Counted from the first letter of the stretch, positions 10,782 through 56,169 are shown. The stretch is 64,000 nucleotides of DNA from Candidatus Melainabacteria bacterium 17Bon1m (GCA_032128875.1 JAVLKG010000001.1:64001-128000); one strand, 5' to 3'. Notes: generated from the sequence alone by a model not told the origin. Translations and numbers: made by a program.

Positions 10782-12758
10782 ATGCACACCCTAACAAAAC
10801 AGCCGACGTCATTTTTAGATGCTATCACCGGTCCTGCCGAGTTGAAGCAAATGTCGGTTGAAGACCTGCAGATGCTCGCAGGCGAGATTCGTCATGAGAT
10901 AGTCAGCAGTTTGTCGCGAACAGGTGGGCATTTAGCCTCAAACCTGGGAATCGTTGAAATCACTCTGGCGCTCCATCGCGTTTTCAACACTCCCAAAGAT
11001 CAAATTCTTTGGGACGTCGGACACCAAGCGTATGTGCACAAGATGCTCACCGGCAGGCGCAATCGATTTGATACCCTGCGTCAGTTCAAAGGTTTGAGCG
11101 GTTTCGTCACACCTGTAGAGAGTGAACACGATGCGTTTGTAGCAGGGCACAGCTCTACTTCCGTCTCTCTTGCAGTGGGCATGGCGATCGCGCGTGACCA
11201 TTTGAAGCAAGATCACAAGGTTATCGCTGTGATTGGTGATGGTGGTTTGACCGGCGGCATGGCGCTTGAAGCTATCAATCATTTGGGTCACATTCAGAAG
11301 AATGTTTTGATAGTGCTCAACGACAACGAAATGTCCATCAGTGAGAACACCGGTGGATTGGCGTTGTACATGAAGCGCATCAAGGAAACTTTCTTTTATC
11401 GCGACATCAAAGAAAAGCTTGATTCGATCGAAGGCAGTCTCGATAAAGTTCAACTGACTGCAGGCATTTGGGACATGATTCTCGAAGTGAAGAAGCAGGC
11501 CAAAGAGCGCTTCGACACTCCCGGTATTGTTTTCGAAAAACTAGGCATCAACTATAGCGGTCCCATCGATGGACACGATGTCGATGCTGTCGTTCAAGCG
11601 TTCGAGGCAGTTAAGGATAAATCAGCGCCACAGATTGTTCATCTCATTACCTGCAAAGGCAAGGGCTATCAGCCGGCGGAGGATGATTCAATCAAATACC
11701 ACGGCGTGCCTGCGTTTAGCTTAGAGCCGCAACTCAGCGAGAAGGTCGATGAGTCGCCAAAACCAAAACCCAAGACTTATTCAGACGTGTTCACTCAGGC
11801 ATTGATTGACGTCGCCAAAGATGAACCAAATCTGGTGGCAATCACTCCGGCAACTGCCGAGGGCAGTGGCTTGGTTAAGTTCGGCAAGGCTTATCCTGAG
11901 CGCTTCTTTGATGTGGCAATCTGCGAGCAGCACGCAGTCACTATGGCTGCCGGTATGGCAAAAGCCGGATTGAAACCGGTCGTTTCCATTTACTCCACTT
12001 TCTTGCAGCGCGCGATGGATCAGGTTATTCACGACGTCGCCATTCTCAATCTGCCTGTCGTCTTTGGTGTTGACCGCGGCGGTCTGGTCGAAGATGGTGA
12101 AACCCACCAGGGTGTGTTCGACATCGCTTACCTCCGCAGCGTGCCCAACTTCACTGTTTTGGCACCGAAAGATGCCGCTGAACTCAGAGACATGGTCTAT
12201 ACAGCAGTCAAGGAGAGCAAAGGTCCGGTAGCCATCCGCTTCCCCCGGGATAAGGCTGTTGGCGCCACCGCCGATGGTGAATACAGTGGAACCCCGTCTA
12301 ACCAACCACGCTTGATCGAACCAACGCATTGGGAGATTTTGCAACAAGGTGTGACCAGCAAGAAAGACCAAAAGCCTGCTGTAGTTTTGGCTTATGGTTC
12401 GATGGTCGACGTGGCGCGTCAGGCTCTTGAAACGATTGAGTCGAGTGTAAAACCAACCTTGGTCAACGCACGTAGTGTCAAACCACTCGATGTAAATTTG
12501 TTGGGTGAGCTTTTGCGCGACGGTCATGACACCTTCTTCACCATTGAAGAGGGCTGCCTGTCAGGCGGTTTTGGAGCTGCAGTTCTTGAATGGATGAGTA
12601 CTGCCGGGCAAGAAATTTCCGACGGTCTGCCCCGCGTAATTCCGATTGCAATTCCAGATCAGTTTGTAGAACACGGCGCACGCGCCATTCTTCTCGACTT
12701 GAATGGACTGAGCAAAGAGAAGATCGCTCAGCGTATTGAGAAAGTACTTAAAAAGTAA
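10782..12758 (+). CDS. dxs: 1-deoxy-D-xylulose-5-phosphate synthase
   Basis: GGHLASNLG, WDVGHQAYVHK, GHSSTS, TPP motif GDGGLTGG...NDN, IYSTFLQRA, DGETHQG. Start placed at ATG 10782; the track starts at TTG 10755. Confidence 0.97.
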   Translation: MHTLTKQPTSFLDAITGPAELKQMSVEDLQMLAGEIRHEIVSSLSRTGGHLASNLGIVEITLALHRVFNTPKDQILWDVGHQAYVHKMLTGRRNRFDTLRQFKGLSGFVTPVESEHDAFVAGHSSTSVSLAVGMAIARDHLKQDHKVIAVIGDGGLTGGMALEAINHLGHIQKNVLIVLNDNEMSISENTGGLALYMKRIKETFFYRDIKEKLDSIEGSLDKVQLTAGIWDMILEVKKQAKERFDTPGIVFEKLGINYSGPIDGHDVDAVVQAFEAVKDKSAPQIVHLITCKGKGYQPAEDDSIKYHGVPAFSLEPQLSEKVDESPKPKPKTYSDVFTQALIDVAKDEPNLVAITPATAEGSGLVKFGKAYPERFFDVAICEQHAVTMAAGMAKAGLKPVVSIYSTFLQRAMDQVIHDVAILNLPVVFGVDRGGLVEDGETHQGVFDIAYLRSVPNFTVLAPKDAAELRDMVYTAVKESKGPVAIRFPRDKAVGATADGEYSGTPSNQPRLIEPTHWEILQQGVTSKKDQKPAVVLAYGSMVDVARQALETIESSVKPTLVNARSVKPLDVNLLGELLRDGHDTFFTIEEGCLSGGFGAAVLEWMSTAGQEISDGLPRVIPIAIPDQFVEHGARAILLDLNGLSKEKIAQRIEKVLKK

Positions 12759-53257: not shown

Positions 53258-54025
53258 CTATTTGCCTGTTTTGTGAAACTCTAAATAGTATTGATATGGA
53301 AGAAACTCTTTGTCGTTGGAGAGTGAATAGCCTGACTCCTTAAGTTCTGCGATCACTTCGCTTTTATCTATGCGGTGATCCTTTGGCGGACCTACTGGAG
53401 ATTTTTCCGTGAAGTCTATGATAACGAGTCTGCCATCAGGTGTCAGCGATGACTGCAAGTCTTTGAAATATTGAACACGATCGTCGATGTGGTGGAACGT
53501 GTCGACTATCAACACGAGATTCACTTTCTCAGGTAATTCAGGCTTTGATGTTTTGATTTCGAACGGAACTACATTCTTGGTGTGTTGTCTCTTCGCTTCT
53601 TCAGCCAGAAATGTAAGCATATCTTTCTCGACGTCAGCCGCGTAGATTTTTGATTCTGGTTGCGCCTTTGCGATGCGGAAAGAGAAGTAGCCTGTTCCTG
53701 CTCCTATGTCTGCGACGATGTCTTTTGGCTGAACGTGCAAAGCTTCAACAACTTGGCTCGGCATCTGCCACTTGTCGCGCGCGGGATCATCGAATACTTT
53801 TACCCAGCGTTTTGCATCTTTGAATTCGCGATGGTATCCAGCCTCGTGCCCCTTCTTGTGATGCACGTGTTCTTTTTTTTCTTCCGGTGTTTTTTCTTTT
53901 AGATTTTCTGCTGCCGCCTCTGCTGCCGGCGCGCTATCGTGCGCTTGTGTTTCTTGCGCACCAAAACCAAATGAGGCAGAAATCGTTAGTGCCAATATGA
54001 GACTAAAAGGTTGAACTGATTTCAC
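53258..54025 (-). CDS. Exported class I SAM-dependent methyltransferase
   Basis: Signal peptide, His-rich stretch, RDKWQ.P, VADIGAGTGYF, FHHIDDR, LPYQY. Confidence 0.88.
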   Translation of the reverse strand: MKSVQPFSLILALTISASFGFGAQETQAHDSAPAAEAAAENLKEKTPEEKKEHVHHKKGHEAGYHREFKDAKRWVKVFDDPARDKWQMPSQVVEALHVQPKDIVADIGAGTGYFSFRIAKAQPESKIYAADVEKDMLTFLAEEAKRQHTKNVVPFEIKTSKPELPEKVNLVLIVDTFHHIDDRVQYFKDLQSSLTPDGRLVIIDFTEKSPVGPPKDHRIDKSEVIAELKESGYSLSNDKEFLPYQYYLEFHKTGK

Positions 54026-54247
54026 CGTTTAACGCACCATTCCTTTTCAAAACTTTGGTCCTATTGTAAGCGAATAAAGTTGTACGCGACTAGCGGCACC
54101 AGGTAGGAGTTCTGATTCTGAGAAGCGCCAAGCGGTTGGATTTCATTTGCGTCTCGGCTTGACTTCCATTAGAATGCGATTCTGTCGTTTCGCCAACCTG
54201 ATATGATGGTTTAACGACATCTCTCCCTTCATTGAGAGGATAGGACA

Positions 54248-54487
54248 ATGCAATACTTTAGAGCACAAACTAACTCCTTTTGAATCGTCCAGCAAGCGAA
54301 GACGCGGGTTCCCGTCTGAGTCACGGGTTAAGCGTGGACGACGTATTGTTCATGGTGATAAAGAACTTGTAGAGAAACTCGGTCGCAAGGACTTGTGTCC
54401 GTGCGGCTCAGGACGCCGGTTTCAAAGGCTGCTGCATGACTAGCGGCCGCTTTTGACGGCATCAATCGAGATCACTACTTTAGATAA
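54248..54487 (+). CDS. Small basic SEC-C metal-binding protein, about 78 aa, readable only via three +1 frameshifts
   Basis: RBS GAGAGGA/AGGA, ATG 54248. Joined product [78 protein letters not shown]. Shift sites 54278 (TTT TGA), 54420 (TTT CAA) and 54451 (TTT TGA). Confidence 0.75.
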
Positions 54488-54503
54488 TCGCGTTCAGCGA
54501 AGC

Positions 54504-54527
54504 GTAGGGGCGGCATAAATGCCGCCC
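54504..54527 (+). repeat. GTAG-type REP-like hairpin
   Basis: GTAG-GGGCGGCAT-AA-ATGCCGCCC, flanked by GCGAAGCG on both sides. Confidence 0.6.
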
Positions 54528-54585
54528 AGCTTTGCGAAGCGAAACTTTTTGAATCCCAACATTCGTTTTGTCAAAGGAGACAAAC

Positions 54586-56169
54586 ATGATTCCACATGCG
54601 GAAATAAGAGCGAAGCATGATCGCTCATGGTCCTTTAGGTTGTTGGACGCCCTCCTTCACAGTCGACCGGAAGAAGACATCGGAGAAATTATTGAAACAA
54701 TTGCCGCGCTAGACGATCCACGGCTGGTGCCGCCTATGGTGCGTCTTTTGGAGGATGCTTCACAGCCCGCGCATCTAAGAGAATTTGTCAGCGAAGTCCT
54801 TGGGCAAATGTGCACAGGATGTTCAGAAGCAGATAGGCGCAGATGGTGGAGTTCAGGAGATCGGATTTTGCGCAGGCATGCGATTATTGAAGCTCGCACC
54901 TCTGAAGCTGACATTCTCATTCCGATAGCAAGAGATCCCAGTCATGAATTCCATCTTGATGCAATCAATAGTTTACTGTTTGGATTTGAAGAACCGGAGC
55001 AGCAGCGACTTTCTATCCAGGCACTTTCTCATCCGAATCCCGGAGTACGTATGGCAGCAGCGAACAACCTCAAATGGGAAGAACCATTTGAAGCAGAAAG
55101 TGCACTTCTCGAAGCTATTTCTGACCCAGTGTTTGACGTGGCCGATCGAGCTCTGACTACCATCTCATGGTTTCGCAGTCAGAAAGTTTTGACAGGCTTG
55201 GCGGAGCTGCGGTACTGCGCAGCTGAGGACTTTCGCGAGGAGGTAGAGGGAGTTTTTGAATGCCATAAGCAGGAATTCGAAGACGCCCTGAGCGACCTTG
55301 AAGGAGAGTCCAAAGAGTTTTTTCTGACTTGGTTAAAGCCAATAGAAAATCTAGTTTCGCTTGAGTGTCCGCGAGTCAGCGAGCAATCTGTTGAGGAATT
55401 GTCCCAACTATCTACAGAGCCTTTACCGAAGGCAAATGCTCCTGAAATTCAACGACTTAGGTCTTCCGCATTGGAGATTATGCGCTTCTATGATGATGCG
55501 GATGGCTGCTGGATTGAAAAGCAATCTTGGAATTCACCTTTTAACTGGGAAGAAGTGGGTGTTTTTGACCGACAACGACTCGCTAGATACTTCCTAAATC
55601 ATACCGATCATCTCGTTAGAGAAATGGCTTGTACACCTCTATCTCTCTGGAATTTCGGTGAAGATCTTGAAGCCTTGCTCGAAGATAGATGCGGTGGAGT
55701 AAGAAAGGCGGCTGCGTTTGCGATGCGAAGAGTAACCCCAAGTCGCTTGATTGCACTTAGTCTCTGGAATCTCTATCAGAATGTAAACAGCACAGGCTAT
55801 TGCGCAACCGAAACGCTTGAATCCTACGTCGTACATGCGCCAGCCATAGGTTTAGAAGATACCTTGTTTGAAATTGCTCAAAGCGACAGACGGCAGAACA
55901 GAAGGTCTTCGGCAATTGCCCTGTTGTGCACTCTTTATGCTGATGTGCATTTGATAAAATTGCTTGGGCTGCTCGGCGAGCCGCCGTTGCTTACTTGGGC
56001 GATTCACGCGCAACTGATTGACTATTGCGCAGAAAAACGAATCTCTACGCCTTTCTTTGCTGACCTCTCGCAAGTTGATGATCTGAATTTGCAGCGGTCG
56101 CTAGCTGGGGCTGTTCCCCATCTCCAGCCCGTTATTCTCAAGGGGGTATCATATGCAGCGAAAACCTGA
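54586..56169 (+). CDS. HEAT-repeat protein of unknown function
   Basis: ALSHPNPGVRMAAANNL, LLEAISDPVFDVADRAL, LLEDRCGGVRKAAAFAM. AAGGAG precedes ATG 54586. Confidence 0.75.
   Translation: MIPHAEIRAKHDRSWSFRLLDALLHSRPEEDIGEIIETIAALDDPRLVPPMVRLLEDASQPAHLREFVSEVLGQMCTGCSEADRRRWWSSGDRILRRHAIIEARTSEADILIPIARDPSHEFHLDAINSLLFGFEEPEQQRLSIQALSHPNPGVRMAAANNLKWEEPFEAESALLEAISDPVFDVADRALTTISWFRSQKVLTGLAELRYCAAEDFREEVEGVFECHKQEFEDALSDLEGESKEFFLTWLKPIENLVSLECPRVSEQSVEELSQLSTEPLPKANAPEIQRLRSSALEIMRFYDDADGCWIEKQSWNSPFNWEEVGVFDRQRLARYFLNHTDHLVREMACTPLSLWNFGEDLEALLEDRCGGVRKAAAFAMRRVTPSRLIALSLWNLYQNVNSTGYCATETLESYVVHAPAIGLEDTLFEIAQSDRRQNRRSSAIALLCTLYADVHLIKLLGLLGEPPLLTWAIHAQLIDYCAEKRISTPFFADLSQVDDLNLQRSLAGAVPHLQPVILKGVSYAAKT

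Follow-up and report, generated by a model that had tools for sequence, protein, structure and literature searches.

A gene for a small SEC-C protein lies on the plus strand at positions 54248 to 54487 of the window, by which we mean the whole 64,000-nucleotide stretch of DNA analyzed here (positions 64001 to 128000 of contig C1 in the Candidatus Melainabacteria bacterium 17Bon1m assembly, G000, whose 35 contigs total 7.55 Mb at a completeness of 93%). When UUUY is read as one step, this interval yields a joined peptide of 78 residues (P0001). Comparative sequence evidence indicates that the gene is real and selectively maintained and is neither an assembly error nor a pseudogene, and its best reading, which is very probably the right one, is serial programmed +1 ribosomal frameshifting. 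The initial annotation had proposed one hidden SEC-C gene expressed through three serial +1 shifts on UUU with re-pairing of tRNA-Phe. This proposal is supported by the comparative evidence, and the positions given for the ribosome-binding site, the ATG at 54248, and the sites TCC TTT TGA, CGG TTT CAA, and CGC TTT TGA C were confirmed to the base. Programmed +1 ribosomal frameshifting is a known mechanism; what is new is the number of obligatory sites (three, and up to four in relatives) within fewer than 80 codons, the pairing of UUU_Y with both stop and sense codons, and the spread over many phyla in one small family.

The layout of the gene and its flanks is given below, where the 11 loci are the analyzable Obscuribacteraceae loci, namely, the window and 10 other species, in five genera.

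54200 to 54209, plus strand: possible -10 element (GATATGATGG), weak and without a match in the strict promoter scan
54234 to 54240, plus strand: Shine-Dalgarno sequence GAGAGGA, 7 nt before ATG 54248
54248 to 54283, plus strand: leader frame, ATG and 10 codons followed by TGA; the 11-codon length is constant in the 11 loci
54275 to 54284, plus strand: putative shift site 1, TCC_TTT_TGA_A, +1, tRNA-Phe from UUU to UUU; ACTCCTTTT is invariant in 11/11 loci
54282 to 54422, plus strand: segment B, frame +1, through CPCGSGRRF; coding-type variation across the 11 loci
54417 to 54426, plus strand: putative shift site 2, CGG_TTT_CAA_A, +1, from UUU to UUC, within the SEC-C motif; from the alignment of 11 relatives
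54424 to 54453, plus strand: segment C, frame +2, giving the last two metal ligands; gapless alignment to uninterrupted homologues
54448 to 54457, plus strand: putative shift site 3, CGC_TTT_TGA_C, +1, from UUU to UUU; UGA_C context as in prfB
54455 to 54487, plus strand: segment D, back in the starting frame, with the TAA at 54485 to 54487
54508 to 54527, plus strand: hairpin GGGCGGCA-TAAA-TGCCGCCC after the gene, seen in the sequence, inside a 32-nt repeated stretch (54496 to 54527)

The start frame of ATG 54248 is ended by the TCC TTT TGA at 54275 to 54283. The GAGG of the Shine-Dalgarno sequence (11/11 Obscuribacteraceae loci), the ATG, and ACTCCTTTT are invariant, and the other leader codons vary without codon phase (7, 6, and 7 variable columns at the three codon positions in the 11 loci). 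Given this constant length, these fixed elements, and the phaseless variation between them, the leader looks like a spacer that brings ribosomes to site 1. Family-wide, a Shine-Dalgarno-like motif stands ahead of 67 of 75 leaders (from the 11 Obscuribacteraceae loci and 77 loci taken from the best 80 of at least 558). The middle frame had been described as having no ATG, GTG, or TTG of its own, which is correct for the stretch before 54393 and incorrect at 54393 itself, where a TTG encodes the Leu before CPC.

Relatives carry GATATAATG or GCTATAAT at the same distance as the window's GATATGATGG, about 41 nt 5' of the ATG. A strict promoter and terminator scan of 54030 to 54600 returned 0 promoters and 0 terminators, the hairpin downstream not being a canonical intrinsic terminator, and an Rfam search of 53900 to 54700 returned 0 families at E values up to 1. 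The 32-nt stretch that contains the hairpin has a one-mismatch match to a second contig in each of four public runs and, because of these matches, appears to be a short dispersed repeat in the organism or the community. The methyltransferase gene upstream (53258 to 54025, minus strand) encodes a signal-peptide-like hydrophobic start followed by a Lys/Glu/His-rich region, and its position beside the SEC-C gene is conserved in the genus.

A search with P0001 matched 24 of 61 genomes including G000 itself; among the other genomes, 8 of 12 from the same genus and 14 of 36 from the same family gave a match. The three-frame layout is found in all 11 analyzable Obscuribacteraceae loci, with site 1 present in 11/11, site 2 in 10/11, and site 3 in 10/11. 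Site 2 reads TTT_CAA in 8 of these loci and TTT_TAA in 2 (L007 and L009), and it is in frame in L005 (CGT TTT AAG AGC TGC TGT). Site 3 reads TTT_TGA in 10 and is in frame in L014 (AGC TTT GAC GGT). These two natural in-frame versions fix the exact junctions at sites 2 and 3, respectively, and 15 uninterrupted homologues from other phyla (12 loci translated with the standard code plus 3 proteins from databases) can be aligned to the joined peptide of the window without a gap at either junction. The number of +1 sites required is three in 4 of the family loci, the window among them, and four in the other 7. The last Phe codon of the window is followed in frame by AGA TAA; at this position most relatives, and most of those within the family of the window, show a fourth +1 site (TTT_TAG_R), a feature beyond those in the initial annotation. 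Two loci were left out of the 11-locus counts. L006 (G007:C37), from the same genus, contains a tandem duplication of 30 nt; KGCCISSGRF is repeated in it, a second TTT_CAA is gained, and reading the gene would take five +1 steps. L016 (G036:C6) retains the leader, TCC_TTT_TGA, and the beginning of segment B (30-odd residues) but lacks a C-x-C motif after that and is probably a truncated relic.

The substitutions among the 11 loci are of the coding type in each of the three frames. Segment B has 16, 13, and 41 variable columns at the first, second, and third codon positions, and 28 of its 44 variable codons differ only synonymously; the corresponding values are 5, 3, and 9 columns and 4 of 9 codons for segment C and 4, 2, and 7 columns and 4 of 8 codons for segment D. 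The third position thus holds 41 of 70, 9 of 17, and 7 of 13 variable columns in B, C, and D. Reading the segments in the two wrong frames leaves 0 to 2 synonymous-only codons (0 to 1 in segment B) and places stops in 1 to 10 codon columns. These patterns indicate that segments B, C, and D are under purifying selection, each in its own frame, and the recurrence of the layout in other species together with coding-type substitution in each frame puts it, on this comparative evidence, far beyond chance. Alignment of homologues had been proposed as a check in the initial annotation, and in that alignment the breaks recur at the same codons with coding-type substitution continuing in each frame. 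The third shift, trusted least at the outset, is now well supported by the in-frame copy in L014 and by the third-position variation of the tail in its own frame.

Three frame breaks within 240 nt, every one on a T run, are what a decaying pseudogene or an assembly error might present. The contigs of four public runs contain 0 indels over 54000 to 54700 and a single substitution, T>A at 54030, outside the gene, which upholds the earlier view that the breaks are not random errors. Runs X2, X4, and X7 each provide one near-identical piece across this interval and may derive from the sample that gave the window's DNA, the sample of X2 and X4 being flagged as a candidate source, and X11, from another study, covers it with two overlapping contigs. 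Different species and genera also keep identical breaks, the changes in each frame being of the synonymous type, and the gene is better conserved than its neighbors: the joined peptide is 85 to 91% identical within the genus, compared with 42 to 84% for the syntenic neighbors (60 to 84% for the methyltransferase upstream on the other strand and 42 to 53% for the HEAT-repeat gene downstream). The contigs and the codon counts already refute decay or error as far as comparative data can, and we give this explanation next to no probability. Runs X2 and X4 are recorded as transcriptomic RNA-Seq; they have contigs of 33 to 42 kb at even depth and appear to hold genomic DNA. Because of these long, evenly deep contigs, the RNA-labeled runs look like DNA and are uninformative on transcription of the SEC-C gene.

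The three-shift design is a family trait over many phyla and is not special to the Candidatus Melainabacteria bacterium 17Bon1m genome, a point that also goes beyond the initial annotation. A pattern scan using one genome per species found at least 599 stretches and at least 558 confirmed relatives, of which the best 80 were kept; removal of two duplicates of known relatives and one weak match left 77 loci for analysis. The matches listed come from Planctomycetota (the most), Acidobacteriota, Gemmatimonadales, Binataceae, Bdellovibrionales, Cyanobacteria, Alcanivoracaceae, Massilia, Caulobacter, Abditibacterium, Deinococcales, Thermoleophilia, Chloroflexi, Verrucomicrobia, and others. Massilia horti, Massilia pinisoli, Caulobacter sp. 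CCUG 60055, Stieleria magnilauensis, and Acidobacteriaceae bacterium KBS 96 are among the candidate cultured hosts of the gene. One to three +1 shifts are needed in 76 of the 77 loci from the best 80 of at least 558, the number of required sites per gene being 0 in 1, 1 in 5, 2 in 30, and 3 in 41. The states of the individual sites in these 77 loci, again from the best 80 of at least 558, are as follows.

Site 1: leader ending in N_TTT_Y in 64 of 77
Site 2: in frame in 64; +1 in 12 (TTT_CAA in 11 and TTC_AAA in 1); +2 in 1
Site 3, shifted: +1 in 53 (TTT_TGA in 41, TTT_CGA in 6, CTT_TGA in 2, and four from Acidobacteria)
Site 3, remainder: in frame in 23; -1 in 1
Site 4: last Phe followed as TTT_TAG, TTT_CAG, or TTT_CCG, with R(E/D)-stop in the +1 frame in 59

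Pooling the 11 family loci with the 77 from the best 80 of at least 558 gives an N_TTT_Y leader in 75 of 88 loci, with CGA (40), TGA (29), CAC (3), CAT (2), or TAG (1) as the A-site codon. The in-frame copies of site 4 end in F-R-(E/D)-stop, which confirms the true C terminus. In the four Acidobacteria, the site 3 shift probably occurs at a CTT_YGG a few codons upstream. Thirteen loci lack a simple site 1; at least five of them have a T7 run, which calls for either one -1 step or a pair of consecutive +1 steps. Loci L031, L038, L044, L046, and L060 are among the odd site 1 variants, several of which have T7, and further odd variants are the +2 offset at site 2 of L093 (TTT_TC_AAG) and the -1 offset at site 3 of L052. 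A tblastn search with the middle-frame piece found no match among 50,697 phage records, and in a set of 72,556 plasmid records its matches were two plasmids of Candidatus Manganitrophus; the plasmid feature table omits pseudogenes, so that "no feature" at these matches is little proof.

In the proposed mechanism, ribosomes would start at ATG 54248 behind the strong Shine-Dalgarno sequence and translate the 11-codon leader of free sequence, and production of the full 78-residue, basic SEC-C zinc-knuckle protein (Cys-x-Cys...Cys-Cys) would need three +1 shifts. At each site, peptidyl-tRNA-Phe (anticodon GAA) on the P-site UUU would re-pair one base downstream, on UUU or UUC, with the A-site codon starting with the spare pyrimidine. 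This codon is UGA at sites 1 and 3 and the common codon CAA at site 2, where two relatives have UAA. Unshifted ribosomes would terminate immediately at sites 1 and 3 and six codons later at site 2, and the resulting peptides would be without a complete metal site. With serial sites, output would be the product of three slippage probabilities, giving very low basal expression and a steep rise as +1 slippage becomes likelier; a lack of RF2, slow decoding in the A site, and damaged or undermodified tRNA are candidate causes of such an increase. In the initial annotation, the full protein had been proposed to appear only upon failure of frame maintenance or of RF2 termination, a condition that may apply. 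Three serial events of ordinary efficiency would yield very little protein.

The composition of the junctions is consistent with this mechanism. At sites 2 and 3, whose junctions come from alignment rather than from the search pattern, a U or C serves as the spare base and follows UUU or, rarely, CUU. Of the 22 shifted junctions at site 2, 21 are TTT_C or TTT_T and one is TTC_AAA; of the 63 at site 3, 59 are TTT_T, TTT_C, or CTT_T, and the remaining four are the Acidobacteria with CTT_Y a few codons upstream. A spare pyrimidine after UUU is the signature of P-site tRNA-Phe (GAA) re-pairing in the +1 frame. The A-site codon is the spare pyrimidine plus the codon of the next residue, so that a following Glu (GAR) makes it UGA or CGA, Lys (AAR) CAA or UAA, Asp (GAY) again UGA or CGA, and Arg (AGR) UAG or CAG. 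The UGA codon is a stop in G000, whose own prfB needs a CTT_TGA_C shift; that gene (G000:C7, approximately 10,950 to 12,041) reads TAT CTT TGA C and has no obvious Shine-Dalgarno-like run just before the site. The motif by itself does not look very shifty in G000: TTT before TGA at the ends of long open reading frames (ORFs) is not avoided (18 seen versus 16.6 expected), and TTT_CAA occurs in frame 813 times, CAA being a common codon at 21.2 per 1,000.

No Shine-Dalgarno-like stimulator was recognized before the shift sites. RNAalifold on the 11 loci gave a covariation term of +0.84 and compensatory pairs at 3 of 45, none of them at the shift sites; the two helices that it drew (Shine-Dalgarno to site 1 and site 2 to site 3) were not accepted as evidence, no compensatory pair lying in either. 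The Shine-Dalgarno sequence GAGAGGA (54234 to 54240) is complementary to the UCCUUUU of site 1 (54275 to 54281), with which it is predicted to form a helix of 7 bp; neither side varies among the 11 loci, which makes covariation uninformative, and in other phyla the TCC is replaced by TGC or TTT.

We infer that the correction is made by the ribosome rather than by RNA polymerase or editing. Every site lies on a short T run, as would be expected if transcriptional slippage or editing dropped the spare base from the RNA and ordinary triplet translation followed, yet the runs are only T3 or T4, and known transcriptional slippage needs longer homopolymers than these. Moreover, the spare base at site 2 is a C after TTT in 8 of the 11 relatives, and the contigs of the RNA-labeled libraries are identical to the DNA, though those libraries themselves look like DNA. 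Correction at the RNA level is, in our judgment, very unlikely. Much the same low probability attaches to the idea that the frames are never joined and give separate short products, namely, the leader of 11 residues and possibly a piece of the middle frame begun at a noncanonical start such as the ATA at 54240. Two 61-amino-acid Melainabacteria proteins (P0029 and P0034) are indeed annotated with non-ATG starts and end at or just past site 2, and Planctomycetes have an in-frame ATG directly before SKRRR. Against this, the window's middle frame has no ATG, GTG, or TTG before 54393, the metal motif would lose its last two cysteines, and segments C and D, which have no starts of their own, show coding-type constraint and are collinear with the uninterrupted homologues.

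A special tRNA with an enlarged anticodon loop that reads UUUY as a quadruplet would account for the whole peptide, obtained in the window and its relatives by a four-base UUUY step, and for the T7 variants at site 1 (TTTT, TTTC, GAG). Such a tRNA is extremely unlikely: ARAGORN found 68 tRNAs in the 7.55-Mb genome, none with a four-base anticodon and only two ordinary tRNA-Phe GAA genes, long ORFs contain 13,306 in-frame TTT codons with C or T as the next base, and the family is spread over many phyla. ARAGORN also reported tRNA-like genes with a two-base anticodon in a six-base anticodon loop at G000:C3:1007950-1008023, L027:637-724, and L037:1002-1075, two of which sit in tRNA clusters by the SEC-C gene in Alcanivoracaceae genomes. 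Serial slippage of tRNA-Phe on the ribosome remains the preferred reading.

The joined peptide scores 27.7 bits against Pfam PF02810 (SEC-C; cutoff, 20.4 bits; E = 2.5e-6) over profile positions 1 to 18 of 19, in agreement with the SEC-C zinc motif called at the outset, and the middle frame alone scores 22.6 bits over positions 1 to 13 of 19 only. The metal ligands C50, C52, C61, and C62 are invariant in 23 aligned sequences, and the window's C61 and C62 are reached only past the site 2 shift; this four-ligand SEC-C site is a predicted zinc knuckle. A PDB profile search matched the SEC-C stretch only (YchJ-C, 9l6b_C, E = 4e-8; SecA metal-binding domain [MBD], 1sx0, E = 1.3e-6), and the N-terminal 45 residues and the DG..R..YFR tail had no PDB match by sequence. 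The predicted structure of the uninterrupted homologue set (A5) has a mean pLDDT of 54.7, with values above 70 only in the knuckle (residues 41 to 60), and the model suggests that the basic N-terminal half is probably disordered by itself.

Databases hold the family as 55- to 61-residue fragments with invented starts or truncated ends, an annotation problem exposed by the present analysis, under the names "nucleic acid-binding protein," "SEC-C (metal-binding) domain-containing protein," "YecA," and "YchJ." By tblastn, 13 of 79 loci have Hen1 or RtcB no more than 3 kb away: Hen1 directly follows on the same strand in 7 and is about 2 kb off in 2 more, and RtcB is downstream in 2 and upstream in 2. 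The 74 downstream neighbors include Hen1 (6), RtcB (2), and RNA ligase (2), and nothing was seen more than twice among the 73 upstream neighbors; Hen1 was found in 0 of 14 control genomes. Genes for tRNA or transfer-messenger RNA (tmRNA) occur within 3 kb in 10 of 60 loci, three of which are in same-strand tRNA arrays of 7, 6, and 18 genes. The 64-kb window contains no tRNA gene, and the Hen1 and RtcB genes of G000 lie elsewhere than the window. The neighborhood hints at RNA repair, and the product probably binds nucleic acids or the ribosome as a factor tied to that process, as suggested by analogy from the gene neighborhood in other phyla and the database names.

To our knowledge, very few bacterial cellular genes depend on programmed +1 frameshifting. 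We found no description of a SEC-C gene family needing +1 frameshifts in the literature covered, outside which lie many subscription papers and supplements, and no report of a known SEC-C protein that needs frameshifting, including in searches on Hen1/Pnkp, YecA, and YchJ. The first 300,000 characters of a 2016 review (PMC5009743) contain neither "SEC-C" nor "SecA" nor "zinc," and the main text of the 2013 GeneTack survey contains neither "SEC-C" nor "zinc"; that survey clustered at a BLASTp E value of 1e-50, which a 78-residue protein presumably could not reach.

If the reading is true, a gene family in hundreds of species from many phyla carries two to four obligatory +1 shifts in fewer than 80 codons. 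It would offer natural cassettes (UUU_UGA, UUU_CGA, UUU_CAA, and UUU_UAG) with in-frame relatives as built-in controls. If the shifts are regulatory, the maintenance of the reading frame would be linked to RNA repair, and serial recoding sites would build a steep switch. It is possible, though we consider it rather doubtful, that the UUU_Y sites form a multiplicative, switch-like gate in which a modest rise in +1 slippage brings a large rise in product, and that the zinc knuckle binds the ribosome or tRNA and works with Hen1-Pnkp or RtcB repair. Such a gate, made of frameshift sites, would be a sensor of damage to translation that is widespread in bacteria, and it may feed back on its own slippage.

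The textbook case of a bacterial +1 programmed frameshift is prfB. As proposed for the window gene, it relies on +1 P-site slippage beside a UGA followed by C (site 3 is UUU_UGA_C), and a failed shift ends translation early; two relatives have CTT_TGA at site 3, as prfB does. According to the 2016 review (PMC5009743), UUU_U replaces CUU_U in a minority of prfB genes. The two systems differ in that prfB has one site with a Shine-Dalgarno-like stimulator just upstream, whereas here three to four sites fall within 78 codons with no stimulator found, and one site of the window has the sense codon CAA in the A site. The prfB product, RF2, also reads the stop at its own shift site. Autoregulation of this type does not apply to the window gene, whose product is a predicted SEC-C zinc-knuckle peptide and not a release factor, the RF2 gene being on contig C7.

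The UCC_UUU_CGU of influenza PA-X is an experimentally proven +1 site (PMC3498833). It resembles site 1 in having the same E- and P-site codons (UCC_UUU), a pyrimidine-first A-site codon, and a +1 shift with tRNA-Phe re-pairing on UUC (PMC3498833). Site 1 is N_TTT_CGA, often preceded by TCC, in 40 of the 75 loci, which is likewise similar to PA-X. PA-X differs in belonging to a eukaryotic virus and in using a single site to produce an alternative C terminus, whereas the shifts here are bacterial, serial, and obligatory, with half of the sites abutting stops. In Euplotes, more than one frameshift site can occur in a single gene. The +1 shifts of Euplotes, like those proposed for the window gene, occur at a slippery codon before a stop (PMC10235951, PMC4759687). 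They are genome-wide and reported without a regulatory function (PMC10235951, PMC4759687), whereas the shifts described here are, on present evidence, limited to a single small gene family whose bacterial hosts, unlike Euplotes, otherwise terminate normally at these stops. With respect to the product, the motif G-R-x-D-x-C-P-C-G-S-G-x-x-F-K-x-C-C is shared with the SEC-C domains (PF02810) of the SecA C terminus, YecA, and YchJ, of which the SecA MBD is reported to bind zinc, SecB, and ribosomes (bioRxiv 10.1101/613315). Unlike in SecA, YecA, and YchJ, the SEC-C motif of the window stands in a very basic protein of 78 residues.
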